Part shown: positions 4,287-60,140 of the stretch, piece after piece
Layout of the letters: each line of letters opens with the position of its first letter
How positions within the stretch are numbered: position 1 is the first letter of the stretch
Origin: Candidatus Omnitrophota bacterium
GTDB lineage: Bacteria; Omnitrophota; Gorgyraeia; Aquiviventales; Aquiviventaceae
Reading direction: 5' to 3'
NCBI GenBank assembly: GCA_023247215.1
Contig: JAHFGX010000001.1
Coordinates: 36,880 to 100,879, forward strand
Length of the DNA stretch: 64,000 bases
Translations under genes and position numbers: made by a program
Notes under the pieces: generated by a model
Database searches by the model: none
Told to the model about the DNA's origin: nothing
The model's input: only the letters and a program-made list of their open reading frames with translations

Positions 4287-4396
4287 GCACGCCTCGAATT
4301 GGCCGGATCGCGCGTGGTTCGAGATGCGCCGGCTGCTCCATGTCGCGTGCGACTGGATGACCATCGCGGATGCCTAATCTGACCACAGGGGGAGCC

Positions 4397-14919: not shown

Positions 14920-14922
14920 CGC

Positions 14923-26756: not shown

Positions 26757-26769
26757 GAGCGCACGATGG

Positions 26770-30537: not shown

Positions 30538-31664
30538 TCCGGCGCGTGCTGTTCGTCATTGGTTCCGCGGCGATCGGCGGCGCGGAAGAGCTGATGTGCC
30601 TGCTGGTGCGGGGGCTGACCCGGGCCGGGCATGTCTGCGTTCTCATCTGCCCGGCCTCCGGCCCGATGGCGGCGCGGTACCGCGAAGCGGGCGCCGAGGT
30701 AAGCCTCGTGCCGCATCAGCTGCTGCATCCAGCCGCGATCTGGCGCATCGCGCGCCTGATCCGGCAACATCGGATTGACGTTGTGCACACCTGCCTGTAT
30801 GCCAGCGACGTGGCCGGACTGTTCGCGGCCCGCCTGGCGGGCGCTCCTCGAATCATTTCACACGTCGTCGGGTGCAATTTCGTCGTGTCGCGCGAGCGCG
30901 GCTGGCGTCGGGCACGCAAGCGCCTGCTGTCTTGGGCGCATCGCGGGATCTATGCCTTGGCCGACTGCGTGATTGCGGTGTCAGACAGCGTGAAGGCGGA
31001 TTTGGCGACGCGGCCGGGCCTCCGCGTGCCGCCAAGCAAGATCACGGTCATCCGCCATGGCTGGGACGCTCCCGCGGCCTCCCATGGCTGGACGGATGAA
31101 GCCGGCGGCCCGGAGATCATTCTGGATGACGGACCGGCGATTGTCGCGGTGGCCAATCTCTTTCCGCTCAAGGGGCATCGGTATCTCTTGGAGGCTGTGG
31201 AGCTGCTGGTTGGGCGGTGGCCGCGGCTGCGCTGCGTCCTGGTGGGCGACGGCCCGGAGCGGTCGGCGCTCGAACAGCACGCGCGCCGTCTCGGATTGGA
31301 GGAGCGGGTGCGGTTTGCGGGGTGGATTGATGAGCCGGCCAAACGGCGCGTGATTGAGCGGAGCCGGTGCGTGGTACTCCCCTCGCTTTCCGAGGGGTTG
31401 CCGGTGTGCGTGCTGGAGGCGATGGCCTTCAGCAAACCCGTCGTCGCAAGCCGGATCGGCGGGATTCCTGAAATCGTCGAGGACGGCCGAACCGGCATGT
31501 TGGTGCCGCCGGCGGACTCGCGCGCGTTGGCGGAGGCGATCCACGCGCTCTTATCGGATGCCGCGCTGGCCGAGCGGATGGGCCAAGCGGGCCGGCAGCG
31601 CCTGCAGCAGCATTTTTCGGCCGGCCAGACTATTGAGCGCATGGAGGAGCTGTACGCCGGATGA
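30534..31664 (+). CDS. Glycosyltransferase family 4 (GT-B, retaining)
   Basis: N-terminal GGAE; C-terminal PSLSEGLPVCVLEAMAFSKPVVAS with the E-x7-E motif. ATGA overlap. Confidence 0.85.
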   Translation: MIRRVLFVIGSAAIGGAEELMCLLVRGLTRAGHVCVLICPASGPMAARYREAGAEVSLVPHQLLHPAAIWRIARLIRQHRIDVVHTCLYASDVAGLFAARLAGAPRIISHVVGCNFVVSRERGWRRARKRLLSWAHRGIYALADCVIAVSDSVKADLATRPGLRVPPSKITVIRHGWDAPAASHGWTDEAGGPEIILDDGPAIVAVANLFPLKGHRYLLEAVELLVGRWPRLRCVLVGDGPERSALEQHARRLGLEERVRFAGWIDEPAKRRVIERSRCVVLPSLSEGLPVCVLEAMAFSKPVVASRIGGIPEIVEDGRTGMLVPPADSRALAEAIHALLSDAALAERMGQAGRQRLQQHFSAGQTIERMEELYAG

Positions 31665-33367
31665 CGCGGATCCTCGGCATCAACACCGGCTTCGCCCATG
31701 ACCCCGCGGCAGCGCTGATCAGCGACGGCAAGATTGCGCTCGCGGTGGAAGAGGAACGTTTGGATCGCGTCAAGTTCGGCAAGGGGTTCCCCCACCGAGC
31801 GATCGAGGCCTGCTTGAAGCACGAGGGCCTCTCGCTCTCCGATCTGGACCGCGTGGGGTTCAATTTCCAGCCGTGGAAGATGTTCGCCACCGATCTGGCG
31901 CTCAATGCCCGCTGGCTGTTTCGCCGCCGCGCCTCCACCTACGCGGCGTATCATCTCGGGGCCTCCCTGCATCCGCTGCTGTTCCACCTGAAGGAGGCGG
32001 AATGGTTCAAGCGGCGGACCGGCGGCGCGCTGCGCGTCCAATTCCTGGACCATCACCTCTGCCACGCGGCCAGCGCCTTTTACGTGTCGCCCTTCGACGA
32101 GGCGGCGATCCTCACGCTCGACCAGCGGGGGGAATCGGTCTCAGCCACGATGAGCGTGGGGCAGGGCACGGCGATCCGGCGGCTCGGGACGGTGCGCCTG
32201 CCGGATTCGCTGGGGATGCTCTACCTGAGCGTCACCTTGCATCTCGGGTTCCACGTCGGCGACGAATATAAGGTGATGGGGCTCGCCCCCTACGGCACGC
32301 CGGCCTATCGCGACGTCTTCACCGACCTGCTGCAGCAGAACAGGCACGGCGCGTTCCGGCTCAACCCGTCCTATTTCGATTACCTCGGCGCCGAGCGCTG
32401 CTTCTCAAACAAGTTCTATACGGCCCTTGGCCCCCGGCGGCAGCCGGGCGAGCCGATCGAACAGCGTCACATGGATCTGGCCTGCAGTCTTCAGGCGCGG
32501 TTGACGGACGTCGTCTTGAAGATGACCGAGCGGTTGCATGCGCGGACGAACCTGCCCAACCTGTGCCTGGCCGGCGGGGTGGCCTTCAACAGCGTGATGA
32601 GCGGCGCGCTGCTGCGGCACTCGCCCTTCAAACAACTGTACATCCAGCCGGCTGCAGGCGACGCCGGCACCGCGCTCGGCGCGGCGCTGATCATCGCGCA
32701 CGGCCAATTGGGCCAGCCCCGAGGCATGGTGATGGAGCACGCCTTCCTCGGCCCGGCGTTCAGCGAGGAGGAGATCCAGGCGGCGTTGGCGGCCTGCAAA
32801 GTGGCGTATGAGCGGCCGGCCTCGATTGCCCGCGCCGCCGCCGAGCTGCTGGCCCAGGGGCAGGTGGTCGGCTGGTTCCAGGGTCGGATGGAGTTCGGCC
32901 CGCGCGCGCTGGGCGCCCGGAGCATCCTGGCGGATCCGCGATCCGAGGGCATGAAAGACCGCGTCAACCAGTGCGTCAAGCACCGCGAAGGGTTCCGTCC
33001 CTTCGCGCCGTCGGTCTTGGAAGAGCGCGCGGGAGACTATTTCGAGTATGCCGGCGCGTCGCCGTTCATGCTCTTCGTCTATGGGGTGCGTCCGGAGAAG
33101 CGGGCCGTCATCCCGGCCGTCACCCACGTGGACGGCACGGCGCGCGTGCAGACGGTGCGCCGAGCGGACCATCCGCTCTACTGGGAGCTGATCAGCGAAT
33201 TCGAGCGCCTGACCGGCGTCCCCGTCGTCCTGAACACCTCGTTCAACGTGAATGGCGAGCCGATTGTCTGCGCGCCGGTGGACGCCATCCGCTGTTTCTT
33301 CGGCTCCGGCCTCGATGCGCTGGCGCTCGGCCCGTTCCTGATCCGGAAGGCTGCTCATGCTCAGTGA
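31661..33367 (+). CDS. Carbamoyltransferase, NodU/CmcH family (glycan O-carbamoyltransferase)
   Basis: N-terminal ILGINTGFAHDPAAALISDGKIALAVEEERLDRVK (ASKHA-like); HHLCHAASAF and C-terminal YrdC-like region; 568 aa. ATGA overlap. Confidence 0.8.
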   Translation: MTRILGINTGFAHDPAAALISDGKIALAVEEERLDRVKFGKGFPHRAIEACLKHEGLSLSDLDRVGFNFQPWKMFATDLALNARWLFRRRASTYAAYHLGASLHPLLFHLKEAEWFKRRTGGALRVQFLDHHLCHAASAFYVSPFDEAAILTLDQRGESVSATMSVGQGTAIRRLGTVRLPDSLGMLYLSVTLHLGFHVGDEYKVMGLAPYGTPAYRDVFTDLLQQNRHGAFRLNPSYFDYLGAERCFSNKFYTALGPRRQPGEPIEQRHMDLACSLQARLTDVVLKMTERLHARTNLPNLCLAGGVAFNSVMSGALLRHSPFKQLYIQPAAGDAGTALGAALIIAHGQLGQPRGMVMEHAFLGPAFSEEEIQAALAACKVAYERPASIARAAAELLAQGQVVGWFQGRMEFGPRALGARSILADPRSEGMKDRVNQCVKHREGFRPFAPSVLEERAGDYFEYAGASPFMLFVYGVRPEKRAVIPAVTHVDGTARVQTVRRADHPLYWELISEFERLTGVPVVLNTSFNVNGEPIVCAPVDAIRCFFGSGLDALALGPFLIRKAAHAQ

Positions 33368-34394
33368 GGTCCGGCGGTGGTCGGCCGCGCGGCTGCGCGG
33401 CGCCGTGGCCCGAACATTGCTGGCCACCGGGGCCGAGGCCAGGGGCCGCCGCCGCCAGGGCGCGCGCTTGCGGATCCTGATGTATCACGGGGTGGTGGCG
33501 CGCCGGACCGGACCGGGTCGCTGCGGAAATTTGTTTGTGGACCAGAAGGCCTTTGCCCGGCACGCGCGTTCGCTCGCGCGGGATTTTTGCGTGGTATCGC
33601 TGGAGCAGGTCGCGGAGTCCGTGCAGGCGGGGCGGCCGTTTCCGGACCGGGCGGTGTGGATCACGTTTGACGACGGCTACCGCAACGTGGTGACAACGGC
33701 GCTGCCCGTCCTCCAGGCGCTCCGGCTGCCGGCGACGGTGTTTGTCTTGCCGGGGCTGATGGACGCCGGCGAGGGACTATGGTTCGACGCGCTGCGCGTC
33801 CTGCTCGTGGACGGCGTGGAAGCGTCTGAGGACGTGGGGCATGGTCTGACGCTGGGCCGACCCTCGGCCGATCCGGAACGCGCCTGGACCGAGGCGGTCC
33901 GGCGCATCCTTCGGTTGGACCCACGGTTGCAGCGCGAGATGGCGGCGCAGATTCTCGCCCGGGGCCGGTGCGAGCAGTGGCTGCCGCGTCATCCAGAGTT
34001 CGCGCTGGCCGGGTGGGATGAATGGCGCCGCGCCTGTTCGGACGGACTCATCTCCGTGGGGTCCCACGGGATGCGCCATGAGACGCTGGCCGGGTTATCC
34101 AGGGAGGCGTGCATGGAGGAATGGCAGCGCTCGAAATCGCGCATCGAGGACGCGCTGGGCCGGACGTGCCTCGCAGCCGCCTATCCCTACGGCGCGCTCG
34201 ACGCGTCGGCGGCGGAGGCGGCTCGCCAGGCCGGCTATGCGTGCGCGGTCACCACGGACGAGGGCCTCAATGAGGCGCAACACGATCCCATGCGCCTTCG
34301 GCGCACGATGATCGGTGACGGCGGGGACGTGGCGTTGTTCCGCGCACGCGCGTCCGGGGCGTGGGACCTCGCGCGGCCGAGGGGGAGCCGATGA
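33357..34394 (+). CDS. Polysaccharide deacetylase (NodB homology domain, CE4)
   Basis: WITFDDGYRN (TFDDG Asp-Asp metal motif); His motifs SHGMRHE. Confidence 0.75.
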   Translation: MLSEVRRWSAARLRGAVARTLLATGAEARGRRRQGARLRILMYHGVVARRTGPGRCGNLFVDQKAFARHARSLARDFCVVSLEQVAESVQAGRPFPDRAVWITFDDGYRNVVTTALPVLQALRLPATVFVLPGLMDAGEGLWFDALRVLLVDGVEASEDVGHGLTLGRPSADPERAWTEAVRRILRLDPRLQREMAAQILARGRCEQWLPRHPEFALAGWDEWRRACSDGLISVGSHGMRHETLAGLSREACMEEWQRSKSRIEDALGRTCLAAAYPYGALDASAAEAARQAGYACAVTTDEGLNEAQHDPMRLRRTMIGDGGDVALFRARASGAWDLARPRGSR

Positions 34395-50202: not shown

Positions 50203-50993
50203 CCAAGAACGAGTCCGCGCGCCTGACCGACTGCATCCGCAGCGTGGCGTGGGCCGGCGAGGTCCTGGTGATTGACGACAATTCCACCGACGACACCGTC
50301 CGCCTGGCGGAATCGTTGGGCGCGCGGGTGCTGCGCCGAACGATGGAGAACGAAGGCCGCCACCGCAACTGGGCCTACGCGCAGGCGCGGCATGAATGGG
50401 TCCTCAGCCTCGACGCCGATGAGCGGGTCACCCCGGAGCTAGCACGGGAGATCCAGGCGCTGTTTCGCGGGACCCCGCCGCAGGACACGTACGCGATCCC
50501 CCGGCGCAATTTCCTGGGCGACCGGTGGATCCGCCACGGCGGCTGGTATCCCAGCGCGCAGATGAAGCTCTTCAAATGGTCGGTATTCCGCTGGGAAGAA
50601 ACCACTGTGCATCCGCGCGCGTTGTCCGACCGCCCCTGGGGCACGCTGCGGCACGACCTGCTCCACTATTCCTACCGCGATCGCGAGGATTTCCTGAAGA
50701 AGCAGGACCGCCACACCACGCTCGAGGCGCAGAAGTGGATCGCCGACGGCCGACGCGTCTCCTGGGGCAAAGCGTTTTGGCGCACCGTGGACCGGTTCGT
50801 CCGCGGCGCGATCCTCAAGCAGGGCTATCGCGACGGGGCGCTCGGCTGGTGGCTGGCGTGGCGGGGCGGGGCGTACCAGTGGATCAGCTACTCGAAATAT
50901 CTCACGATCAAGCGCCAGGCCGGCGCAGCATCCGGCGGCGCTGGACCCACAGCGTCCCAAACAGCGCCAGAGCGAACCACGGCAGGATCATAA
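50166..50993 (+). CDS. Glycosyltransferase family 2 (WaaE/KdtX-like subfamily)
   Basis: LSVVILTKNE, VLVIDDNSTDDT, LSLDADE. It has a low-complexity C-terminal tail; the last 86 bp overlap the convergent minus-strand gene. Confidence 0.75.
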   Translation: MDRPVPLSVVILTKNESARLTDCIRSVAWAGEVLVIDDNSTDDTVRLAESLGARVLRRTMENEGRHRNWAYAQARHEWVLSLDADERVTPELAREIQALFRGTPPQDTYAIPRRNFLGDRWIRHGGWYPSAQMKLFKWSVFRWEETTVHPRALSDRPWGTLRHDLLHYSYRDREDFLKKQDRHTTLEAQKWIADGRRVSWGKAFWRTVDRFVRGAILKQGYRDGALGWWLAWRGGAYQWISYSKYLTIKRQAGAASGGAGPTASQTAPERTTAGS

Positions 50994-52161
50994 GCACTAG
51001 AAAGACGTACGTTTCTCCGCGGATGCTTCGCATCCCGATCGCCCGCCACAACGCGCTGTGCGTCATGATGCTCAACCCCAACAGAAGCAGCCCGGCGGCC
51101 AGGGACCCCAACAGCGACGGGAAGCACCGGCGGGTCGTCCACAGATTCGACAGCGCCAACATCGCCGGGAAGAGCAGCGCGCTGTAGGTGGCGACCCAGA
51201 CCGTGGGCGAGCAGAGCGCCATCAGGACCATCAACAGCGCGCCGTCATAGATCAGGCGCGTCCGCCGCTCCCCGGCCGGTTGCCGCGGCCAGACGACCAG
51301 TCCCAGCAGGATCAGCGAGGTCGCGGCATACAGCTCGACAATCATCGTCGCGGGCCACGACGCCACGTGGAGGCCGTACGGACCGGCCATGAGGAAGCGG
51401 CCCAGCAGGGCTAACAGCGACTGATTGCCGATCTCAAACGCCCGGCCGGCCCCGCTGGAGAGCAGCACGCGGATCCAGTCGCCGAACAGATGCAGCGGGC
51501 GGCCCGGCTGCATCGCAAAGCTGCTGAGCGCGTTGAATCCAACCAGCCACGCGACGGTGCGCCCGGCCGTCGCCCATCGCCTGCTGAGCAGCAGGTAGAG
51601 CAACACCACGGCGGCGGGCAATTTCAGCGAGATCCCAAGGGCCAACAACGCTGCGGCGAGCCACATCCGTCCGGCATCCTCCGCCAACAGGAAGCCGATC
51701 ACCAGCAACCCCCAGAGCAGATCCACTTGGCCGTTCAGAAACTCCGCGGTGAGCGACCGGACGAGCAGGAACATGGCGGCGACGATCAGCCAGGGCGGAT
51801 CATCGACCCCGGCCCGCCGGCAGAGCTCCAGCCCAGCCCAGCAGGACAGCACCAGCCAACCGACGGTCAGCGCCGCCCACGCCACGGCGGCCGGCTGAGC
51901 CGGAATCCAGGCCAGCGGAATCCAGGCCAGGGCCCAGCACGGCGCGTACTTGAACAGCATCACGGCGGAGCTGGTGGGATCATACAGGGCGGCGGCTTGG
52001 CCCTGGACGACGCGCAGGGCCACGGCCCGGTAGACGTCTAGATCCATCAAGAAGGGGGGGTGGAGCAGGAAATTCCCCGGAAACCGGAGCAGGAATCCCA
52101 ACCCGAGGCCGGCCAGCCAAAGCCAGCGCCGGTTCCACCACGGAGTTGAGCCAGTAAGCAT
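50908..52161 (-). CDS. Polytopic membrane protein, GT-C-like (DUF2029 / GT87-type polyprenol-phosphate-sugar-dependent glycosyltransferase); the only minus-strand gene
   Basis: About 12 hydrophobic segments across 417 aa. Divergently paired with a Dpm1-like synthase. Carries an in-frame 15-bp tandem duplication (LAWIP-LAWIP). Confidence 0.45.
   Translation of the reverse strand: MLTGSTPWWNRRWLWLAGLGLGFLLRFPGNFLLHPPFLMDLDVYRAVALRVVQGQAAALYDPTSSAVMLFKYAPCWALAWIPLAWIPAQPAAVAWAALTVGWLVLSCWAGLELCRRAGVDDPPWLIVAAMFLLVRSLTAEFLNGQVDLLWGLLVIGFLLAEDAGRMWLAAALLALGISLKLPAAVVLLYLLLSRRWATAGRTVAWLVGFNALSSFAMQPGRPLHLFGDWIRVLLSSGAGRAFEIGNQSLLALLGRFLMAGPYGLHVASWPATMIVELYAATSLILLGLVVWPRQPAGERRTRLIYDGALLMVLMALCSPTVWVATYSALLFPAMLALSNLWTTRRCFPSLLGSLAAGLLLLGLSIMTHSALWRAIGMRSIRGETYVFLVLMILPWFALALFGTLWVQRRRMLRRPGA
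51901..51930. repeat. Perfect 15-bp tandem duplication (cggaatccaggccag x2) inside the minus-strand GT-C gene
   Basis: Read directly from the sequence. Encodes a duplicated LAWIP pentapeptide in frame. Confidence 0.9.
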
Positions 52162-52191
52162 AAGAGAACTATTCTATCACGGTCTCTTCTC

Positions 52192-52965
52192 GTGCTATCA
52201 TATCTGTTCCCAATGTTCACCCTGGTGATCCCAACCTACAATGAGCGGCTGACCATTGAGCCCTTGCTGGACCGAGTGGCCGCCGTGCGCCTCGGGTGGC
52301 CGGAAGAGCTGGAAGTGCTGGTGATGGATGACGGCTCCACGGACGGCACCATCGCGGCCGCGGAGGCGGCGCTGGCCCGCCTGCGCCTGGGGCGCGTGGT
52401 GCAGCGCCACGGCCAGCCCGATCTCGCCCAGGCGGTCTTGGAGGGCATCCGGCAGGCTCGGGGCGAGATGATCGGCGTCATGGATGCGGACCTCAGCCAT
52501 CCGCCGGAGCTGCTGCCGTCGCTGGCGAAGGCCGTGCAGGCGGGGCAGGATGTGGTGGTGGCCAGCCGCTACGTGTCCGGCGCTTGCATCCAAACATTTG
52601 CGGCCTGGCGGTGGGCGCTGTCCCGCCTGGCCAATTGGCTGGCCCGGCCGCTGACACCGGTGGCGGACGCCACCTCCGGCTATTTCGTGGCCCGCGCGGA
52701 GGTGGTGCGCAGCATTGCCCCTGCGCCGCGCGGGTTCAAAATCCTCTTGGAAATTTTGGTGACGCAATGCGTGCACCGCGTGCAGGAAGTGCCCTACCAG
52801 TTTACGGAGCGCGCCGCCGGGCAGAGCAAGCTGCGGTGGTCGGTGTGCGCCTCGTACGGCGCGCAATTGCTTCGTCTGGGATGGCACCGCCTGCGCCACC
52901 CCTGCCGTCATCGTCGCGGCGCTTCGCCGCGTTCCGTCTCCATGACCCATGCCAGCTTCTCCTGA
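52192..52965 (+). CDS. GT2 polyprenol/dolichol-phosphate mannosyl(glycosyl)transferase (Dpm1/ppm-like)
   Basis: LVIPTYNER, VLVMDDGSTDGT, MDADLSHPP (the DAD motif). Alternative start at 52213. Confidence 0.75.
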   Translation: MLSYLFPMFTLVIPTYNERLTIEPLLDRVAAVRLGWPEELEVLVMDDGSTDGTIAAAEAALARLRLGRVVQRHGQPDLAQAVLEGIRQARGEMIGVMDADLSHPPELLPSLAKAVQAGQDVVVASRYVSGACIQTFAAWRWALSRLANWLARPLTPVADATSGYFVARAEVVRSIAPAPRGFKILLEILVTQCVHRVQEVPYQFTERAAGQSKLRWSVCASYGAQLLRLGWHRLRHPCRHRRGASPRSVSMTHASFS

Positions 52966-53767
52966 CCGCGCTCGTCTGTCGGTGGTCGTGCTGACCAAGA
53001 ATGAAGAGGCGCGCATCGCCCGCTGCCTGGACAGCGTGCGGTGGGTGAAGGACATCGTAGTGGTGGACGGCCTCAGCACGGACCGGACGGTGGAGATCTG
53101 CCGGGGCGCTGGCGCGCAGGTGATCAGCCGGGCCTTCTCCGGCAGCTTCGGCGAAGAGCGCAATGTGGGCGCCCATGCGGCGGCGCACGACTGGGTGCTC
53201 CAGTTGGACGGCGATGACGTCGTCAGCGACGAGCTGTGCGCGGCGCTGCAGCGGATGCTGGCGGAGGGCACGCCCCACGCGGCGTTCAACGTGCGCCGCC
53301 AAAACAACTTTCTCGGCCACTGGATGATGCGCGGCGGTTGGCACCACTATTACCACACCCTCTACCGGAAATCGGCCTGCCATTTCGAGGGCTGCGTGCA
53401 CCATATCCTCAAGGTGAACGGGACCATCGGGACGCTGGAGGCGCCGATCCTGCACTATCCGTTCACCAGCCTGGACCAATTCGTCCTCCGGCAGAACCGC
53501 TACACCTCGCTCGAGGCCAAGGAGATGCTGGATGAGCAGGGCGTGCTGCCCTCCAAGCTCGTCCGGTACCACCTCACCTGGAAGCCGCTCAAGGTGTTTT
53601 GGAAAAGCTACGTCAAGAAACAGGGATATCGGGAGGGCTGGTACGGGCTGGTGTTCGCCCTGCTGTACGCCTGGGTGAATTTCCTGAAGTGGGCCAAGTA
53701 TTGGGAGCTGGTGCGGGACCGCTACCAACCCTCCACGGCACAGGAGAGCACGTCATGCGCGTCCTGA
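52949..53767 (+). CDS. Glycosyltransferase family 2 (WaaE/KdtX-like subfamily, paralog of 50166-50993)
   Basis: LSVVVLTKNEE, VVVDGLSTDRT, LQLDGDD. It shares a C-terminal WY-rich region with the other WaaE-like gene. Confidence 0.75.
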   Translation: MPASPDRARLSVVVLTKNEEARIARCLDSVRWVKDIVVVDGLSTDRTVEICRGAGAQVISRAFSGSFGEERNVGAHAAAHDWVLQLDGDDVVSDELCAALQRMLAEGTPHAAFNVRRQNNFLGHWMMRGGWHHYYHTLYRKSACHFEGCVHHILKVNGTIGTLEAPILHYPFTSLDQFVLRQNRYTSLEAKEMLDEQGVLPSKLVRYHLTWKPLKVFWKSYVKKQGYREGWYGLVFALLYAWVNFLKWAKYWELVRDRYQPSTAQESTSCAS

Positions 53768-54741
53768 TCACCGGCATCACCGGATTCGTCGGGAGCCATC
53801 TGGCCGAGTGGCTGCTGGAGCAGCAGCCCGGCGTCGAGATTATCGGGATCCAGCGGTGGCGGAGCAAGACCGAGCACATTGACCATCTGCGCGGGCGCAT
53901 CACGCTGCTGGAGGGAGATCTGCGTGATCCGGTCTCTGTGCGCCGCGCTGTGCTCGAAGCGCGCCCCGACCGGGTGTTCCATTTGGCGGCCCAATCGTTC
54001 GTGCCGGCTTCCTGGGCCGCGCCGTCCGACACGGCGATGACGAACATCATGGGGCAGGTGAATCTCTTGGAGGCGCTGCGGGACGGCTGGCCGGCGACGC
54101 GCGTGCTGGTCGTCGGGAGCTCGGAGGAATACGGCCTGGTCCAGGCGGATGAGCTGCCGATCAAGGAAACCAACCCGTTGCGCCCCCTCAGCCCGTACGC
54201 GGTGTCCAAAGTGGCGCAGGATTTGATGGGCTATCAATACGCCAAGAGCTACGGCATGCACATCGTGCGCACGCGGGCGTTCAACCATACCGGCCCGCGC
54301 CGCGGCGAGATGTTCGCCAGCTCGAACTTCGCAAAGCAGATTGCGCTCATTGAGGCCGGGCGGCAGGAGCCGGTGGTGCGGGTTGGGAATCTGGACGCCC
54401 GCCGGGATTTCAGCGACGCCCGCGACATCGTCCGGGGCTATTGGCTGGCGTTGGAGCATGGCGAGCCGGGCGAGGTCTACAACCTCTGCTCCGGGCGGGA
54501 CTGGTCCATCCGGGACATGCTCGGCATCCTGTTGAAGCTGAGCACCGCGTCCATCCGCGTGGAGCCGGATCCGCAGCGGTTCCGGCCCAGCGACGTGCCG
54601 GTGCTGAGGGGCGACTACGGCAAATTTGCCGAACGGACCGGGTGGCACCCGGCGATCCCCTTCACGCAAACGTTGGAAGATCTATTGAACGACTGGCGCG
54701 CGCGCATCCGGCGGGAGGCGCTGGCCGGGGCGGCCCGATGA
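53755..54741 (+). CDS. NDP-sugar 4,6-dehydratase / 4-keto-reductase family (GDP-mannose 4,6-dehydratase or Rmd-like extended SDR)
   Basis: VLITGITGFVGSHL; GSSEEYG; PYAVSK (YxxxK); 328 aa. Confidence 0.7.
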   Translation: MRVLITGITGFVGSHLAEWLLEQQPGVEIIGIQRWRSKTEHIDHLRGRITLLEGDLRDPVSVRRAVLEARPDRVFHLAAQSFVPASWAAPSDTAMTNIMGQVNLLEALRDGWPATRVLVVGSSEEYGLVQADELPIKETNPLRPLSPYAVSKVAQDLMGYQYAKSYGMHIVRTRAFNHTGPRRGEMFASSNFAKQIALIEAGRQEPVVRVGNLDARRDFSDARDIVRGYWLALEHGEPGEVYNLCSGRDWSIRDMLGILLKLSTASIRVEPDPQRFRPSDVPVLRGDYGKFAERTGWHPAIPFTQTLEDLLNDWRARIRREALAGAAR

Positions 54742-55154
54742 GCGCGAAGCGCGGCCCGGTGCCGTCCACGCTGGTGTCCATCCGGCCGCCGTTCGTGGAT
54801 GAGCGGGGGGCCATCCATAATTTGCTCGATCTGCCCATCTCCAGCGTCGCCGTGATCACGTCGGTCGCCGGGGCGGTGCGGGGCAACCATTACCACAAGA
54901 CCGACCACCACTACTGCTGGCTGCAGTCGGGCGAAATGCGCTACGCGCACCGGCCGGCCGGCAGCCGCGAGGCCCCGGAGGTATGGACCATCACAGCCGG
55001 GCAGATGTTCTATACGCCGCCCCAATACGAGCACGTCATGCTGTTTACCGCCGCCTCAGTCATGTTCGCGTTTGCGCGCCATCCCCGCGACATGGTCAAT
55101 TACGAAGCGGACACGGTTCGGATCCCGCCGCTGGCTCTCGCTCCCATCGGATGA
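54738..55154 (+). CDS. Small cupin of WxcM/FdtA/QdtA-like type (sugar 3,4-ketoisomerase-like)
   Basis: 138-aa cupin with GAVRGNHYHK (His pair). Sits between a 4,6-dehydratase and a C-methyltransferase. ATGA overlap. Confidence 0.5.
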   Translation: MSAKRGPVPSTLVSIRPPFVDERGAIHNLLDLPISSVAVITSVAGAVRGNHYHKTDHHYCWLQSGEMRYAHRPAGSREAPEVWTITAGQMFYTPPQYEHVMLFTAASVMFAFARHPRDMVNYEADTVRIPPLALAPIG

Positions 55155-56410
55155 GCGCCATCTCCCTGCGCACCCGGGACGACTGCCGGCTGTGCGGCTC
55201 CCGGCAGTTGGATCAAGCCCTCTCGCTCAACGCCACGCCGCTGGCCAATGCGTTCGTGACCGACGCGGAGCTGGCCGTGCCCCAACCGCGGTTTCCCCTC
55301 AACCTGTGGCTCTGCCGCGCCTGCGGCCATCTGCAATTGCGGGACGTCGTGGACCCCGAGCTGCTGTTCCGCAACTACGTGTACGTGTCCGGCACCTCGC
55401 CGGTCTTTGTGGAGCATTTCCGCCGCTACGCGGAGGCGATGCTGGCGTTCACTCGGATGCCGGCGGGGTCAGCCGTCGTCGAGATCGGCAGCAATGACGG
55501 CACGCTGCTGCGGTTCTTCCAGCAGGCCGGCATGCAGGTGCTCGGGGTGGATCCGGCCCGGGCAATTGCCGCCCAGGCGACCGCCTCCGGAATTTCCACC
55601 CGGCCGGATTTCTTCACGCCGGAGATGGCGCGCGCGTTGAAGCGGGAAAGGTGGGAGGCCAGGTTGATCGCGGCCAACAACGTCTTCGCCCATGCGGATG
55701 ATCTGGGCGGCATGGTGGACGGCGTGGCGCATCTGCTGGCCCCGGCCGGGGTATTCGTGTTTGAGGTCTCCTACCTGGTGGATGTGCTGGACAAGCTGCT
55801 CTTCGACACCATCTATCACGAGCACGTGAGCTACCATACCGTCACGCCGCTGCGCGACTTCTTCCGCCGGCACGGGCTGGAGCTGGTGGATGCCATCCGC
55901 GTGGACCCGCATGGCGGGTCGCTGCGCGGGATCGCCCAGCGCCTGGGCGGGCCGTGGCCGGTCAGCCCGCGGGTGGAGGAGCTGGTGGCGTTGGAGCGCG
56001 AACGGGGGATGGCCAGCCTCGAGACCTACCGGACGTTTCACGACCGGATTGCCGGGCTCAAGGCGCCATTGCTGGAGCTGCTGCGAAGCCGCAAAGCGCA
56101 GGGGCGCAGGATTGCCGGCTTCGGGGCGCCGGCCAAGGCGACGACGCTGATGTTCCATTTCGACATCGGTCCGGACCTGGTGGACTATGTCGTGGATGAC
56201 AGCCCGTGGAAGCAGGGGCTCTATTCGCCCGGCCACCACCTGCCGGTGCGTCCGGCCTCCGCCCTCTATGAGTCGTCGCTGCGCCCGAATGATGCGTTGA
56301 TCCTCGCCTGGAATTTCGCGCCCTCCATCCTGGCCAAGCACCGCGCCTTCCTGGAGGGAGGCGGGGAGTTCATCGTGCCGCTGCCGGCGCTGGAAGTGGT
56401 GAAGCGATGA
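55151..56410 (+). CDS. NDP-hexose C-methyltransferase (TylC3/NovU-like; zinc ribbon plus Methyltransf_13/14 domains)
   Basis: CRLCGS ... CRACGH zinc ribbon; SAM motif VVEIGSNDGTLL; C-terminal C-methyltransferase-type domain. ATGA overlap. Confidence 0.65.
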   Translation: MSAISLRTRDDCRLCGSRQLDQALSLNATPLANAFVTDAELAVPQPRFPLNLWLCRACGHLQLRDVVDPELLFRNYVYVSGTSPVFVEHFRRYAEAMLAFTRMPAGSAVVEIGSNDGTLLRFFQQAGMQVLGVDPARAIAAQATASGISTRPDFFTPEMARALKRERWEARLIAANNVFAHADDLGGMVDGVAHLLAPAGVFVFEVSYLVDVLDKLLFDTIYHEHVSYHTVTPLRDFFRRHGLELVDAIRVDPHGGSLRGIAQRLGGPWPVSPRVEELVALERERGMASLETYRTFHDRIAGLKAPLLELLRSRKAQGRRIAGFGAPAKATTLMFHFDIGPDLVDYVVDDSPWKQGLYSPGHHLPVRPASALYESSLRPNDALILAWNFAPSILAKHRAFLEGGGEFIVPLPALEVVKR

Positions 56411-57468
56411 GCCGGCTGTACGTTCCCAGCGACATCGAGCAGATTGTGGACGGGCTGGGCCCGGACGCCGGCGCGTTTGACGGCGCGTCCATCCTCCTCT
56501 GCGGCGGGCACGGGTTCCTGGGCCGGTATTTCACCGCCGTCTTCGCCGCGCTGAACCGCCGGGTGCTGAGGGCGCCCTGCCGCCTCATCGTGATGGACAA
56601 CAACGCGACCGGCGGTCCCGCGGTCACGCCTCCGGCGGATGCCGGCTATGAGTTCATCGCGCACGACATCACGCAGCCCGTCACCCTGCCGATGCCGATG
56701 GACTACATTATCCACGCGGCCGGGATCGCCAGCCCGGCTTATTACCAGCGGTTCCCCCTGGAGACGCTGGAGGTCGCCACCCTCGGCACCAAGCACCTGC
56801 TGTTGTTGGCTCGGCAGCAGCCGCGCCTCAAAGGGTTCCTGTTCTTCAGCTCCAGCGAGATCTACGGCGACCCGGACGAGCGGCACCTGCCCACACCGGA
56901 GACCTACCAGGGCAACGTCTCCTGCATCGGGCCGCGGGCCTGCTACGATGAATCCAAGCGGCTCGGCGAGACGCTCTGCGCGATCTTCCATGAGCGCCAC
57001 GGCGTGCCGACGGCGATGGTCCGTCCCTTCAACGTGTACGGACCGGGCATGCAGGAGCGCGATTATCGCGTGCTGCCGAACTTCGCCAGCCGCATCGTCG
57101 CGGGCCAGCCGATCCACGTGTACGGCCACGGCCGGCAGACGCGCACCTTCTGCTACGTGACCGATGCGGTGACCGGGTTCCTGAAGGCGCTCCTCGCGGG
57201 GCATCGGGGGGAGCCCTACAACATCGGCAATCCCACGCCGGAGATTTCCATGTTCGAGCTGGCCAAGACGCTGGAACGCGTTTTGGGCCGGTCGCTGGAC
57301 ATCCGCCTGGCGTCTTACCCGGACAGCTATCCCCAGGACGAGCCGCAGCGCCGCTGCCCGGACATCAGCAAGGCCGCGGCGCATCTGGGCTATGCGCCGG
57401 CCGTGCCGCTTGAGGAGGGGTTGAAGCGATTCATGGCGTGGGCGGCGGCCAACTACGCCGGGGCATGA
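56407..57468 (+). CDS. NAD-dependent epimerase/dehydratase family protein
   Basis: ILLCGGHGFLGRY Rossmann motif; SSSEIYG; CYDESK (YxxxK). Confidence 0.7.
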   Translation: MSRLYVPSDIEQIVDGLGPDAGAFDGASILLCGGHGFLGRYFTAVFAALNRRVLRAPCRLIVMDNNATGGPAVTPPADAGYEFIAHDITQPVTLPMPMDYIIHAAGIASPAYYQRFPLETLEVATLGTKHLLLLARQQPRLKGFLFFSSSEIYGDPDERHLPTPETYQGNVSCIGPRACYDESKRLGETLCAIFHERHGVPTAMVRPFNVYGPGMQERDYRVLPNFASRIVAGQPIHVYGHGRQTRTFCYVTDAVTGFLKALLAGHRGEPYNIGNPTPEISMFELAKTLERVLGRSLDIRLASYPDSYPQDEPQRRCPDISKAAAHLGYAPAVPLEEGLKRFMAWAAANYAGA

Positions 57469-57574
57469 AGCGCCGGGCCACGGGTCCTGCCGCCTGCGAT
57501 GGCCCGTCGGCTTCGCGCGCCGGGCGCCCATCTCCGGCGTCACCCGTGGCCAATTCGGTCGCAGCCGGCGACGT

Positions 57575-58558
57575 GTGACGATGGCCGCCGCGGTGAGAAT
57601 AGGGTTGATTGGGTTGGGGCGGTGGGGGCAGGTGTATGTGCGCGCCCTGGCGGCGCTGCCATCACGCTGCCGATTGACGCACGTGGGGACGCGCCATCCG
57701 GAGCGCCTGAAAGGGTTGGGGGCGGCGGGGGCGACCGTGGTGCCGGACTGGGCGGATGTGATCCAGGCGGAGTGCGATGCGGTCATCGTGGCGACTCCGC
57801 CCCAGACGCACGCGGCGCTGTTGGAGGCTTGCCTCGAGGCCGGCAAACCTTGTATCATCGAGAAGCCGTTGTGCCTGGACCTCGCGGCGGCGGAGCGGTT
57901 GCATCGGCGGGTGGCCGCGAGCCGGGTGCCGGTCCTCGTGGACCACACCCAGCTCTTCAGTCCGTCGTACGGCGCGGTGAAAGAGGCGCTGGCGCGGGAG
58001 GGGGAGCCCATCCGGGTCGTGTGGTCTGAGGGCATGGCGCTGGGCCCGTTTCGTGACGACGTGCCCGCGCTGTGGGATTGGGCGCCGCACGACGTCAGCC
58101 TCTGCCTGGACCTGTTCGGCCAGGCGCCCTCGCAGGTCGCGGCGCTCGGAGGGCCGAGGAATGCCGGCGGCGCGCCGGAGATGGTGAGCCTGCGGCTGGA
58201 GTTCCCGGCCGGGGGGTGCGGGTGGATTCACGCCGGCCGGCTCTCGCCGGCGCGGCGGCGCGCGTTGAGCGTATTCACGGACACCCGCATCTACCGCGCG
58301 GATGATTCGGCCGATCCTGCCGCCGGGGTCGCGCCATTTGCGTTCGCCGCCCGGTCCGAGACCGGGCGCGCGGAGCCGGTGGAGTTCTCCCCGCTGGGTC
58401 CGGCCTCCTCCTCGCCGGCGATGGACCGTATGCTGAACTATTTTTTGGACGGCCTGGCCGGCGGCGACCGGACGAAGTTCGGCACCGGGTTGGCCACGGA
58501 GGTCGTGCGGACGCTCTCGGCGTGCGAGCCGATGCTGCACCCATCAAGAAAGCGATGA
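57575..58558 (+). CDS. Gfo/Idh/MocA family NAD(P)-dependent oxidoreductase (sugar dehydrogenase/keto-reductase)
   Basis: VRIGLIGLGRWGQ Rossmann motif; EKPL catalytic region (IIEKPLC). GTG at 57575 or ATG at 57581. Preceded by the largest intergenic gap in the right half (106 bp). Confidence 0.7.
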   Translation: MTMAAAVRIGLIGLGRWGQVYVRALAALPSRCRLTHVGTRHPERLKGLGAAGATVVPDWADVIQAECDAVIVATPPQTHAALLEACLEAGKPCIIEKPLCLDLAAAERLHRRVAASRVPVLVDHTQLFSPSYGAVKEALAREGEPIRVVWSEGMALGPFRDDVPALWDWAPHDVSLCLDLFGQAPSQVAALGGPRNAGGAPEMVSLRLEFPAGGCGWIHAGRLSPARRRALSVFTDTRIYRADDSADPAAGVAPFAFAARSETGRAEPVEFSPLGPASSSPAMDRMLNYFLDGLAGGDRTKFGTGLATEVVRTLSACEPMLHPSRKR

Positions 58559-59436
58559 ACGACATGCAGGATGCGCGGCTCAATGCAGAATGTCCTGCCT
58601 GGGGCGGGGTGGACGGGCGCGCCGCCGCGGGCGTCTTTGACGATCTGACCGCCTATCTTCAGCAGCCTCTCAAGGACATTGCGCAGGCCTATTGGCGCGA
58701 GCGGGACGGGGCGGATCAAGCCGCGCAGCGCCGGGTGGCCGAAGCGACCGATGAGGGTCCGGTCTTGTCCTATTACGCCCAGACGCCGATTTACCTCTAC
58801 CAGTTGAGCTACTGGGAGGCATGCCGCGACAAGCAGGCCTGGTTCCAGGTGGTGGAGCGCGCCTGCCGACGCTACGGGCTGATGCGCGTGCTGGATTTCG
58901 GCGGCGGGGTCGGGGGATTGACGTGTTACCTGGGCCGGCGCGGCATCCGCTGCGATTACGTGGACGTCGGCGGCAAGACCTTCGAGTACGCCGGGTGGCG
59001 GTTTCGCCGGCATGGCCTGTCCGTGCGCCAGTTTGATATTACCAAGCCGGAGCAGTTGCCCGCCGAGCCGTATGACGCGGTGCTCACGTGGGACGTGCTC
59101 GAGCATCTCTTCGACCTGGATGGCGCTCTCCAGACTATCGCGCGGCTCATCAAGTCGGGCGGGTGGTTCCTGCACAAGTCCACCTTTGCGCACGCCCATG
59201 AGGAGCATGAGCATGTGCACCTGGAGAAGCATGCGTGCTACCATGACATCAGCCAATTCAATGCGTTGGTCTGCCGTCATGGGTTCCGGTTTGTGGGGCA
59301 GCTCAAGCCCAGCCAGCTCTCCCGCGTGCTGCGGCAATGCGGCTGGCCCTATGCCGTCGCCGGCATCCGCGTGGTGCCGCGCCTAAAGCACGGAGGGAAT
59401 TTCCTCGTGCATTGCCGGAAGGCGGGTGACGCATGA
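58555..59436 (+). CDS. Class I SAM-dependent methyltransferase
   Basis: Motif I VLDFGGGVGGL; acidic VDV; motif post-II VLTWDVLEHL. ATGA overlap. Confidence 0.65.
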   Translation: MNDMQDARLNAECPAWGGVDGRAAAGVFDDLTAYLQQPLKDIAQAYWRERDGADQAAQRRVAEATDEGPVLSYYAQTPIYLYQLSYWEACRDKQAWFQVVERACRRYGLMRVLDFGGGVGGLTCYLGRRGIRCDYVDVGGKTFEYAGWRFRRHGLSVRQFDITKPEQLPAEPYDAVLTWDVLEHLFDLDGALQTIARLIKSGGWFLHKSTFAHAHEEHEHVHLEKHACYHDISQFNALVCRHGFRFVGQLKPSQLSRVLRQCGWPYAVAGIRVVPRLKHGGNFLVHCRKAGDA

Positions 59437-60140
59437 TCTGGGAGCGGACCGTCCCGATCCTGGTCTATCACCGCATCGGTGAGCCGGCGGGGGACCATGT
59501 GCCGACCGTCACGCCGGAAAGCTTTGAGCGGCAATTGGTCTGGATGGCCAAGCGGCACTATCGCGTCATCGGGCTGGCGGAAGTGGTCGAGAAGCTGCGC
59601 CGCGGCGCGCCGATCCCGCCCCGGCATCTGGTGATGACTTTCGATGACGGCTACGAAGAGACGGCAACGATCGCCGCCCCGCTGTTGCGGCGATTCGAGT
59701 TTCCCGCCACGGTGTTTGTGACCCCCAACGAGATCGGCCTGCCGGGCTTCATGACGTGGGAGCAGGTGCGCGCCATCGGGCACGAGGGCATCGCGATCGG
59801 CAGCCACACGCTGCACCACACCTACCTGCCGCTGGCCTCCGAGGAGGCGGTGGAGCTGGAACTGGTCGAGTCGAAGCGGGTGCTGGAGCAGGAGCTGGGG
59901 CAGACGGTGGACTGGCTTAGCTACCCGGTCGGCGGCTACACCCCCCAGGCGCAGGCCGTGGCCGAGGCCGCGGGCTATCGCGCGGCGTGCACGACCAACC
60001 GCGGCGTGCGCCGGCGCAATGACGACCTGTTCGCCCTCCGCCGCATCAAGATGACGGAGCGCGATCAGTATCCGCTCTCGCTCTGGGTCAAGCTCTCAGG
60101 TTATTACGATCTGTTCCGCCGGTTCGAGCACCCCTACTAA
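59433..60140 (+). CDS. Polysaccharide deacetylase (NodB homology domain, CE4)
   Basis: VMTFDDGYEE (TFDDG); His motifs SHTLHH. ATGA overlap. Confidence 0.75.
   Translation: MIWERTVPILVYHRIGEPAGDHVPTVTPESFERQLVWMAKRHYRVIGLAEVVEKLRRGAPIPPRHLVMTFDDGYEETATIAAPLLRRFEFPATVFVTPNEIGLPGFMTWEQVRAIGHEGIAIGSHTLHHTYLPLASEEAVELELVESKRVLEQELGQTVDWLSYPVGGYTPQAQAVAEAAGYRAACTTNRGVRRRNDDLFALRRIKMTERDQYPLSLWVKLSGYYDLFRRFEHPY

Follow-up and report, generated by a model that had tools for sequence, protein, structure and literature searches.

A conserved four-gene cassette proposed to make a C-methyl-branched sugar in LPS-type loci of Candidatus Omnitrophota

The functional unit of the locus described here is a set of four genes, g2-g3-g4-g5, located among the LPS core/O-antigen genes of bacteria of the Candidatus Omnitrophota type. 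We propose, with a probability of about one half, that this cassette makes a methyl-branched LPS sugar from UDP-glucuronic acid, through a keto-pentose that is isomerised, C-methylated, and then reduced. The more general view of a preliminary description of this DNA, in which the locus supplies an LPS-type glycan with a sugar carrying a C-methyl branch, is very probable. The enzyme families are established by the analyses below, while we infer the substrate, the nucleotide, the regiochemistry, and the order of the steps.

The window, i.e., the whole stretch of 64,000 nt that was analysed, comes from a Candidatus Omnitrophota bacterium (GCA_023247215.1, contig JAHFGX010000001.1, 36,880-100,879 of the forward strand). 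The host is an uncultivated groundwater bacterium. The six co-directional ORFs that had been placed at 53755-59436 of the plus strand, g1 to g6, have exactly these coordinates (Table 1). That these are real genes is shown by exact or near-exact copies on independent ENA contigs and by orthologues in many genomes. Their GC3 is 0.81-0.90 (versus about 0.67 overall). At the junctions the genes overlap by 4 nt (ATGA), except that g4 and g5 are separated by a gap of 112 nt. This gap excepted, all junctions from GT2a through the deacetylase overlap by 4-17 nt.

Table 1. Genes of the cassette and its immediate neighbours (positions in the window).
Gene	Coordinates	Strand	Assignment	Length (aa)	Pfam match (bits)
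GT87	50908..52173	-	GT87 (GT-C fold) membrane glycosyltransferase		GT87 (91.7)
GT2a	52192..52965	+	GT2, DPM1/ArnC/PgfS type		Glycos_transf_2 (97)
GT2b	52949..53767	+	WaaE-like GT2 glycosyltransferase		Glycos_transf_2 (67.6)
g1	53755-54741	+	Rmd/Gmd-family extended SDR	328
g2	54738-55154	+	Cupin, unnamed family	138
g3	55151-56410	+	TylC3/TcaB9/MtmC-type SAM-dependent NDP-sugar C-methyltransferase	419
g4	56407-57468	+	UXS-family SDR	353
g5	57581-58558	+	Gfo/Idh/MocA NAD(P)-dependent oxidoreductase	325
g6	58555-59436	+	Generic class-I SAM methyltransferase	293
Deacetylase	59433..60140	+	Polysaccharide deacetylase		Polysacc_deac_1 (90.8)

The order cupin (g2), C-methyltransferase (g3), UXS-like SDR (g4), and Gfo oxidoreductase (g5) is found in about 17 independent loci, mostly of Candidatus Omnitrophota, where the cassette sits behind WaaE-like GT2 genes and the enzymes are 50-70% identical to those of the window. 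This count includes one locus (L010) that qualifies once its N-masked C-methyltransferase is read. None of these loci has a dehydratase alongside the cassette. Since the syntenic loci have a GT2b-like gene directly 5' of the cupin, GT2b is the candidate transferase for the cassette sugar. Upstream of the GT2 genes, the GT87 gene is also conserved, with a member of the same family at the same place in L005/L006, and the deacetylase, which is translationally coupled to g6, is kept downstream of the cassette in most syntenic loci. GT2a is a possible polyprenyl-phosphate sugar synthase (NCBIfam scores of 59.5 bits for PgfS, 58.5 for ArnC, and 54.5 for AglJ, all under cutoff). The window also encodes two GT9 heptosyltransferases, a Wzy_C ligase, a WecA-like GT4, and several GT2 besides the GT87, in agreement with the LPS-type setting proposed earlier.

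The assignment of g3 to the TylC3/TcaB9 type was confirmed. The protein matches Methyltransf_13 (72 bits), a class-I methyltransferase domain (Methyltransf_23), and Methyltransf_14 (163 bits), and its PDB matches include MtmC (4rv9, 340 bits, 42% identity), KijD1 (266 bits), and TcaB9 (264 bits, 39% identity). In the alignment, the four zinc cysteines and the Tyr/His/Tyr-x-Glu-His catalytic set of TcaB9 are all kept. It groups with sugar C-3 methyltransferases and not with O- or N-methyltransferases. The suggestion that the locus encodes up to three C-methylation chemistries is not supported: the protein at 11041-12141 has a CxxC...CxxC arrangement and is unrelated to g3 (E = 0.15), with no Methyltransf_13/14 signal even at E <= 0.01, and the B12-rSAM protein matched no family near its cutoff.

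The gene following the C-methyltransferase, g4, had been labelled an epimerase/reductase. We found instead a UXS homologue with a full decarboxylase signature, which always comes after the C-methyltransferase in syntenic loci. It scores 211 bits against human UXS1 (2b69, 41% identity), with the next non-UXS match at 122, against about 60-70 bits for dTDP-glucose 4,6-dehydratases and 72-83 for other extended SDRs, such as UDP-glucuronate 4-epimerase. The S-S-E, YDESK, FNxYGP, and DYRV motifs are present in all 17 orthologues, as is every catalytic and closing-loop residue of UXS, including the equivalent of Arg277. The JGI annotation of these orthologues is UDP-glucuronate decarboxylase. From these sequence features, we propose that g4 is a UDP-glucuronate decarboxylase supplying the keto-pentose. 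In a canonical UXS, the intermediate is reduced again by the same enzyme and no keto sugar is released, but enzymes of the family can release UDP-4-keto-pentose for downstream tailoring, a property that is unpredictable from sequence, and eurekanate has been proposed to be such a decarboxylase-derived branched pentose (PMC10338323).

Alternatively, the cassette could act on an NDP-4-keto-6-deoxyhexose made by an RmlB or Gmd encoded elsewhere, with g4 being a UXS-derived 4-ketoreductase/epimerase and not a decarboxylase. Extended SDRs switch function readily, and in all g4 orthologues a Thr of UXS is replaced by Ser and the N-terminus is extended. To our knowledge, all characterised TylC3-type enzymes act on dTDP-4-keto-6-deoxyhexoses and none on a UDP-pentose. 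Furthermore, the window and the ±10 kb flanks of L003 and L005 (Pfam tables) lack a gene for UDP-glucose 6-dehydrogenase (ugd). However, the conservation of the complete set of UXS residues in the g4 orthologues, the higher score against UXS1 than against the other extended SDRs, and the lack of dehydratase genes in the syntenic loci make this alternative unlikely.

The cupin g2 has no significant Pfam match, either to FdtA (PF05523) or to RmlC. Its AlphaFold model (pLDDT 87.6) has the QdtA/FdtA/FdtD ketoisomerases as best structural match, and g2 has the RGxHxHK motif in common with the FdtA/QdtA ketoisomerases. Two further histidines, H58 and H99, are invariant in the g2 family, giving the full four-His cupin metal motif and a CapF-like site. 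The earlier description as an FdtA-like cupin is right about the fold, which is nearest to the FdtA/QdtA 3,4-ketoisomerases and not that of a plain RmlC epimerase, and does not extend to the FdtA Pfam profile, which gives no match. We propose that g2 is an NDP-keto-sugar 3,4-ketoisomerase or epimerase.

The family given earlier for g5 was recovered by Pfam (GFO_IDH_MocA, 77 bits; C-terminal domain, 29 bits). Its best PDB match is 3c1a (149 bits), it matches weakly the UDP-GlcNAc 3-dehydrogenase of NCBIfam (60 bits), and it is kept after g4 in syntenic loci. We propose that it is a sugar ketoreductase or dehydrogenase. The last gene, g6, is a methyltransferase as previously noted, of generic class I (Methyltransf_23, Methyltransf_11, and Methyltransf_12, with weak, only UbiG-like, PDB matches). 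It was detected in some of the syntenic loci only (L003/4, L009, L014, and L019) and is a variable accessory gene, probably encoding an O-methyltransferase.

A further revision concerns g1, which had been regarded as a 4,6-dehydratase and as a GDP-mannose-dehydratase-like first enzyme of the pathway. The label fits the Pfam match (GDP_Man_Dehyd, 287 bits), but the score against TIGR01472 (gmd) is 182, less than half of the equivalog cutoff of 415, and the best PDB match is the 4-reductase Rmd (2pk3, 285 bits). Identities are 43% with Rmd of A. thermoaerophilus, 38% with the GDP-heptose 4,6-dehydratase of C. jejuni, and 34% with Rmd of P. aeruginosa. The role of first enzyme is not supported, g1 being absent from all of the about 17 syntenic cassettes. 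Homologues of g1 elsewhere occur by themselves, in L030 and at the corresponding position of L027, or follow a true RmlB, in L029. Pfam and NCBIfam profile searches found no Gmd, RmlB, ManC, or RmlA at family cutoff anywhere in the 64-kb window. Judging from its sequence, g1 is most likely a GDP-4-keto-6-deoxyhexose 4-reductase, the product probably being a GDP-6-deoxyhexose, for example that of D-rhamnose. In our reading, it does not open the cassette pathway but forms an accessory module of its own that occupies the same variable slot.

Nevertheless, g1 could feed the pathway in the window, given its resemblance to a real 4,6-dehydratase and its translational coupling to the cupin (a 4-nt overlap with the cupin start). 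It would then open the pathway as a 4,6-dehydratase of a GDP- or other NDP-hexose or heptose, followed by isomerisation by the cupin, C-methylation by g3, and reduction by g4 and/or g5, giving a virenose- or mycarose-type 6-deoxyhexose with a C-methyl group. In the alignments, g1 keeps the Ser-Ser-Glu and Tyr/Lys residues and has a dehydratase-like RW...HL segment that is missing from both Rmd structures. There is also a published in-silico precedent in the LPS virenose of Coxiella, involving Gmd and a TylC3-like enzyme (PMC3539893). We regard this pathway as improbable in the face of the distribution of g1, its relatedness to a reductase, its low Gmd score, and the signature of g4, which is that of a full UXS decarboxylase and not of a plain ketoreductase.

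It is very improbable that the genes are mere neighbours, with g4 making UDP-xylose for a xylosyltransferase, g5 and the cupin modifying another sugar, and g3 methylating a third: several independent sugar pathways are common in LPS loci, as in the rest of the window, and L007 and L011 have the cupin and Gfo pair without g3 and g4, but the gene order is strict across loci, the cassette genes are translationally coupled, and there is a natural fusion of cupin and C-methyltransferase (P0242; 47% identical to g2 and 52% to g3). Another natural fusion joins a GT2 to the cupin (P0388). The pair of L007 does indicate that g2 and g5 can act on another substrate.

In the pathway from UDP-glucuronic acid that we favour, g4 would carry out the oxidative decarboxylation to UDP-4-keto-pentose, which would be released as with ArnA, CalS9, and EvdS6. 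The FdtA/CapF-like metallo-cupin g2 would shift or epimerise the keto/hydroxyl pair, 3,4-ketoisomerisation being the most sensible option. Then g3 would deprotonate the carbon adjoining the keto group and transfer the methyl of SAM to it, creating the branch, and g5 would use NAD(P)H to reduce the keto group that is left. Where g6 is present, it would add an O-methyl group, and the adjacent GT2 would finally attach the sugar to LPS.

Each component can be compared with characterised systems. g1 shares its extended-SDR fold and catalytic residues with both Rmd and GDP-heptose 4,6-dehydratase, enzymes of opposite activities that are inseparable by sequence, and lies outside the conserved cassette. 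g2 is only about 20% identical to FdtA, QdtA, FdtD, and HCAN_0198, which are NDP-4-keto-6-deoxyhexose 3,4-ketoisomerases. Unlike in these, no aminotransferase gene follows it, and the positions of H58 and H99, which complete a canonical cupin metal site in g2, are occupied by Gln and Trp/Gly in FdtD. The C-terminal cupin of S. aureus CapF, which epimerises a UDP-4-keto sugar at C-3, is matched with E-values of only 0.02-0.4 and is fused to an SDR reductase, whereas cupins of the g2 type are free-standing or fused to the C-methyltransferase or a GT2. g4 shares the catalytic Ser/Thr-Ser-Glu, Tyr-x3-Lys, Asn, and loop Arg with UXS, the ArnA C-terminal domain, EvdS6, and CalS9, from which its orthologues are distinguished by Ser at the position of the catalytic Thr and by their extended N-terminus. 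Known tailoring after UXS-family decarboxylases consists of transamination, a TPP-dependent acetyl branch has been proposed, and we know of no description of SAM-dependent C-methylation at this point. g3 has the same Cys4 zinc domain, class-I SAM domain, and Methyltransf_14 C-terminal domain as TylC3, TcaB9, KijD1, and MtmC. These belong to antibiotic deoxysugar pathways, with RmlA/RmlB, a 2,3-dehydratase, and an RmlC-like 5-epimerase as partners, whereas g3 comes from an uncultivated phylum and lies in an LPS locus together with a UXS-like SDR, a metallo-cupin, and a Gfo oxidoreductase. The recruitment of a TylC3-type C-methyltransferase to LPS O-antigen biosynthesis is common to this locus and to the in-silico model of virenose synthesis in Coxiella burnetii, which combines Gmd, the TylC3-like CBU_0691, and an Fcl-like reductase (PMC3539893). 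The Coxiella model starts from GDP-mannose by a canonical Gmd, an enzyme that the window lacks, whereas here the conserved partner of the C-methyltransferase is the UXS-like g4.

The six co-directional ORFs that the preliminary description placed at 53755-59436 are found at exactly those positions, on the + strand (see table). All six start with ATG and have a GC3 of 0.81-0.90; the GC content of the window is ~67%. The junctions of the GT2 genes overlap by 17 and 13 nt, and the later ones, up to the deacetylase, are of the 4-nt ATGA type; the sole non-overlapping junction in this stretch is that between g4 and g5, with a gap of 112 nt. On independent metagenome contigs, g2-g6 recur in identical or nearly identical form. 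These are real genes, and g1-g6 form one operon-like array. Within the g4-g5 gap there is a perfect 10-bp inverted repeat (GGCCACGGGT / ACCCGTGGCC). We considered this gap as a regulatory RNA or a terminator and rejected both, as it folds no better than shuffled sequence (z = -0.42). Over 52-62 kb, sites resembling promoters and terminators are about as numerous as expected by chance.

Features of the array and other window genes discussed in the text (window positions)
Feature	Position	Strand	Length	Assignment
GT2a	52192-52965			GT2 glycosyltransferase
GT2b	52949-53767			GT2 glycosyltransferase, WaaE-like
g1	53755-54741	+	328 aa	Rmd/Gmd-family SDR
g2	54738-55154	+	138 aa	cupin
g3	55151-56410	+	419 aa	TylC3-type C-methyltransferase (by sequence)
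g4	56407-57468	+	353 aa	UXS-like SDR
g4-g5 gap	57469-57580		112 nt	
g5	57581-58558	+	325 aa	Gfo/Idh/MocA oxidoreductase (by sequence)
g6	58555-59436	+	293 aa	class-I methyltransferase (by sequence)
Deacetylase	59433-60140			
Methyltransferase	11020-12141			class-I, uncharacterised family
B12-binding radical SAM protein	24972-26756			
Nonulosonic-acid-pathway-like genes	4361-5353; 5613-6395; 19040-20227			
Long ORFs	12904-14919; 26602-28647; 22528-23451; 8103-9536 (- strand)		~300-680 aa	
Decoration-type genes	31637-34394; 14920-15927; 19921-22610			carbamoyltransferase then polysaccharide deacetylase; PhyH-type dioxygenase; HMGL-like aldolase; HAD phosphatase

Judging from its sequence, g3 belongs to the TylC3/TcaB9-type NDP-sugar C-methyltransferases. 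It matches the N-terminal Cys4 zinc domain Methyltransf_13 (PF08421, 72.3 bits, gathering threshold 31.3), the C-terminal Methyltransf_14 (PF08484, 163 bits, threshold 23.5), and a class-I SAM domain (PF13489, 52.5 bits). Among solved structures, it matches the D-mycarose 3-C-methyltransferase MtmC (340 bits, 42% identity), KijD1 (266 bits), and TcaB9 (264 bits, 39% identity). Both zinc-site CxxC pairs are kept in the alignment with TcaB9 and MtmC, and the segments YVY, NVFAH, and IYHEH lie opposite YPY, NTLCH, and IYDEH of TcaB9, whose catalytic residues are said by Bruender and Holden to be Tyr76, His181, Tyr222, Glu224, and His225. With these domains, this likeness to MtmC and TcaB9, and the kept residues, g3 therefore does not group with O- or N-methyltransferases, and its initial naming as a C-methyltransferase stands. 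Its partners suggest a substrate other than dTDP-4-keto-6-deoxyhexose: the array contains a UXS-like gene and no RmlA or RmlB. A search of ~50 window ORFs with Pfam and NCBIfam yielded no Gmd, RmlB, ManC, RmlA, or Ugd at the family cutoff.

As far as its sequence tells, the UXS-like protein g4 is the leading candidate for generating the keto sugar. It matches human UDP-xylose synthase with 211 bits and 41% identity; the next non-UXS structure follows at 122 bits, and dTDP-glucose dehydratases reach ~60-70 bits. Its UXS catalytic motifs (FSSSEIYGDP, RACYDESKR, RPFNVYGP, DYRVLPNF) correspond to hallmarks kept in g4 and in all 16 orthologues (17 out of 17 proteins), namely Ser/Thr-Ser-Glu, with a Thr-to-Ser change common to the whole family, GPRACYDE(S/G)KR, FN-x-YGP, and D-x-R-V-x-x-NF, whose Arg is equivalent to Arg277 of hUXS1. 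The JGI pipeline names the orthologues UDP-glucuronate decarboxylase. The score, the motifs, and this naming thus make the earlier label of epimerase/reductase too vague. The bifunctional UDP-4-keto-pentose/UDP-xylose synthase model PRK11908 gave 83.3 bits, below its cutoff of 294; it is the only relevant NCBIfam model, is ArnA-like, and has no UXS1-type equivalog beside it in the library. One could suppose that a keto-hexose is supplied from elsewhere and that g4 acts as a reductase, which we consider unlikely for a protein with an intact decarboxylase signature.

We fetched the neighbourhoods of cupin homologues and mapped the window proteins onto all loci by tblastn. The order GT2b-like, cupin, C-methyltransferase, UXS-like, Gfo was found in ~17 independent loci, most of them from groundwater Candidatus Omnitrophota MAGs and with proteins 50-70% identical to those of the window. 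Most are followed in 3' by a polysaccharide deacetylase, an MGDG-synthase-like GT, UDG, and PriA. The gene g6 was detected in some syntenic loci only. The linkage between the enzyme families is strict, and in P0242 (561 aa), a distant member of the cupin family, a cupin (47% identity to g2) is naturally fused to a complete TylC3-type methyltransferase (52% to g3). Another distant member, P0388, is a GT2-cupin fusion. The N-terminal extensions of four other cupin fusions (P0265, P0287, P0294, P0303) have neither similarity to module genes nor a Pfam domain, and were discarded as such. Locus L010 seemed to be a cassette devoid of the C-methyltransferase, but the gene is there, broken by a masked run of N.

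Several loci show variations around this order. A cupin + Gfo/Idh/MocA pair stands alone, with no C-methyltransferase or UXS-like gene, in a MAG labelled Verrucomicrobiota (L007/L011, 10001-11430), and may be a self-contained two-step unit. In L003 (10733-11208; same in L004), the cupin and the C-methyltransferase are separated by an inserted 80-aa ORF plus a HicA toxin gene, the rest of the cassette being syntenic. One Omnitrophota MAG has a second, divergent TylC3-type paralogue (L024, 7877-9061; 38% to g3) ~1 kb upstream of the cassette cupin. Longer loci (L003-L026) carry 2-5 tandem or nearby copies of GT2b-type WaaE-like paralogues upstream of the cupin, making this an expanded glycosyltransferase family in these genomes. 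The labels of six loci (L012, L018, L010, L013, L020, L023: uncultured Enterobacteriaceae, Planctomycetales, Rhodospirillales) are ill-suited to their Omnitrophota-type gene order, and these contigs are possibly mis-binned or mislabelled.

The first gene of the array, g1, had been described as the 4,6-dehydratase starting the pathway, a label that we could not confirm. It matches the Pfam GDP_Man_Dehyd profile (287 bits), and its score with the Gmd equivalog TIGR01472 (181.7 bits) does not reach the cutoff of 415. Its best solved relative is the Rmd (4-reductase) of A. thermoaerophilus (285 bits, 43% identity), followed by the GDP-heptose 4,6-dehydratase of C. jejuni (212 bits, 38%), the Rmd of P. 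aeruginosa (195 bits, 34%), and true Gmd enzymes (~178 bits). The catalytic residues do not discriminate between the two activities, since the A. thermoaerophilus Rmd also keeps S-S-E. In addition, g1 has a dehydratase-like RW...HL segment, opposite which both Rmd alignments show a gap. Taken together, the sequence makes a reductase somewhat more likely than a dehydratase. Homologues of g1 form a huge multi-phylum family (>8,000 matches), and tblastn over all loci found none in or near the cassette of any syntenic locus. None of four contexts examined has gmd beside the g1 homologue: in the syntenic locus L027 it fills, without the cassette, the slot between the GT2 genes and MGDG-synthase/UDG and adjoins a GmhB-like phosphatase; in L028 it follows a GHMP kinase; in L029 it immediately follows a true RmlB (428 bits, cutoff 365); and in L030 it is alone within a GT cluster. 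These contexts, together with the absence of g1 from the cassettes, imply that the conserved unit is g2-g5 and that g1 is an independent accessory module in a shared variable slot. A recent foreign insertion of g1 finds no support in composition, as its GC3 and codon usage are like those of its neighbours (cosine 0.97). That g1 is coupled to the cupin and has features resembling those of dehydratases speaks for it as the entry enzyme, but its absence from every other cassette makes this improbable. That g2-g5 are unrelated neighbours is very hard to reconcile with the synteny and the cupin-methyltransferase fusion.

The cupin g2 was expected to be FdtA-like. It has no match in NCBIfam and none in Pfam above threshold (best PF14667, 24 bits for a threshold of 28.7); the FdtA/QdtA profile PF05523 does not match it at E ≤ 0.001 and has precomputed matches in two of the 120 homologues listed. 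Close homologues (287, with 60-70% identity) make a tight family, which extends to 531 cluster representatives at E ≤ 1e-10. His51, His53, His58, and His99 are invariant in the family alignment, in the canonical cupin order G-x5-H-x-H-x4-H-x6-G ... G-x5-P-x4-H, and occupy the positions of the canonical cupin metal ligands. An AlphaFold model built on this alignment is confident (pLDDT 87.6). It folds as a small cupin that carries the catalytic His-x-His pair, and its best Foldseek matches are the NDP-sugar 3,4-ketoisomerases QdtA, FdtA, and FdtD (E ~4e-8, TM 0.67, ~22% identity). The family motif RGnHyHK aligns with RGEHAHK of FdtD, including the ketoisomerase His pair. FdtD has Gln and Trp/Gly where the g2 family has H58 and H99, positions that match instead the cupin H-x-H-x4-E ... 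H of CapF. The fold and the His-pair motif of the model thus indicate that g2 is FdtA-like and not a plain RmlC; nor is it a protein of ~180-200 aa matching the dTDP_sugar_isom profile, as expected for an RmlC-type 3,5-epimerase. The FdtA-like description therefore holds for fold and motif, and not for family: g2 represents a distinct cupin family, which probably binds a metal.

The remaining genes are, by their profile matches, a Gfo/Idh/MocA oxidoreductase (g5) and a generic class-I methyltransferase (g6). The former matches PF01408 (77.2 bits, threshold 24) and the C-terminal domain PF22725 (29.4 bits, threshold 27), and has the EKP motif, as IIEKPL. Its best solved relative is the uncharacterised 3c1a (149 bits); weaker informative matches are a UDP-GlcNAc 3-dehydrogenase model (60 bits) and the sugar 3-ketoreductase KijD10 (30 bits). 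Literature searches with the PDB codes 8VR2, 7BVJ, and 3C1A returned nothing relevant.

We think it very likely that an NDP-sugar with a C-methyl branch, destined for an envelope glycan, is the product of the cassette. Our preferred reading is a route derived from UDP-GlcA, to which, as a whole, we give a probability of about 0.5. In this route, g4 would convert UDP-GlcA into a UDP-4-keto-pentose released from the enzyme. Such release is documented for ArnA, CalS9, and EvdS6, and a keto or a reduced output is not readable from the active-site sequence of the decarboxylase (PMC10338323). The cupin and the C-methyltransferase would act on the keto sugar, g5 would reduce the remaining carbonyl, and g6 may O-methylate the sugar. 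The WaaE-like GT2 encoded next to the cassette would then attach the product to the LPS core or the O-antigen. The C-5 of a pentose is not a stereocentre, and epimerisation at C-3 before methylation at C-3 would be erased by the shared enolate. On this chemical argument, the most sensible role for the always-retained cupin is that of a 3,4-ketoisomerase. Such a role is consistent with the cupin fold and with the action at C-3 of those Gfo/Idh/MocA enzymes that we know to have been characterised on NDP-sugars. With the cupin acting before the methyltransferase, methylation would take place next to the 3-keto group (C-2 or C-4), a regiochemistry that is not known for TylC3-type methyltransferases. 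In its most specific form, the proposal is tentative: it may be, rather less probably, that a TylC3-type enzyme performs SAM-dependent C-methylation of a UDP-GlcA-derived UDP-keto-pentose, the first such case, so that the LPS of Candidatus Omnitrophota would contain a methyl-branched pentose. The ketoisomerase would then belong to an unnamed metal-binding cupin family, intermediate between those of FdtA and CapF, and the ketoreductase would be a Gfo/Idh/MocA enzyme.

The locus also includes two GT9 heptosyltransferases, a Wzy_C ligase, a WecA-like GT4, and a GT87. Up to three C-methylation chemistries had been proposed for it, which neither of the two further candidates supports. One, a class-I methyltransferase of an uncharacterised family, has a CPVC...CQQC N-terminus, yet compares to g3 with E = 0.15, shows no Methyltransf_13/14 signal at E ≤ 0.01, and has no NCBIfam match; the two proteins share the generic methyltransferase fold only, and we rejected this candidate as a TylC3-type enzyme. 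The other, a B12-binding radical SAM protein, is real, and matches about a dozen unrelated rSAM families, all far below cutoff (best NCBIfam BchE, ApyD, HpnJ, PhpK, and ladderane-type). Other genes add to the picture of the glycan locus. A NeuB-like synthase (216 bits, cutoff 400), a PseF-like cytidylyltransferase (149, cutoff 206), and a PseC/ArnB-like aminotransferase (317, cutoff 423) may make a non-standard nonulosonate, because all three are below the equivalog cutoffs. Four long ORFs with coding-type GC3 lie inside the locus; 8103-9536 has no Pfam domain at E ≤ 1e-5 and the other three none at E ≤ 0.01. The carbamoyltransferase, deacetylase, PhyH, HMGL-like, and HAD genes suggest further unusual sugar decorations.

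Each cassette enzyme is in, or like, a known family. Their combination, in which a TylC3-type methyltransferase is in strict linkage with a UXS homologue, an FdtA/CapF-like cupin that has a metal site, and a Gfo enzyme, was not described in anything that our literature searches found. If the proposal is true, it would give a function to a cupin family of ~530 sequence clusters outside every Pfam model, and the first concrete prediction of the cell-envelope glycan composition of Omnitrophota, a phylum with almost no cultured members. It is directly testable in vitro because the four enzymes are small and soluble and UDP-GlcA, NAD+, and SAM are purchasable. The cassette thus provides a clear and cheaply testable biochemical hypothesis from an uncultivated phylum, and no conceptual surprise. 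Branched C-methyl sugars are, to our knowledge, known almost entirely from actinomycete antibiotics, and those pathways start from a dTDP-glucose 4,6-dehydratase. The association of a TylC3-type methyltransferase with a UDP-glucuronate decarboxylase homologue would be a second entry route, via a pentose, into this chemistry. A TylC3-like methyltransferase in an LPS locus has a published in-silico precedent in Coxiella virenose (PMC3539893), and a branched sugar starting with a pentose-generating decarboxylase is, according to the EvdS6 study, unusual (PMC10338323).
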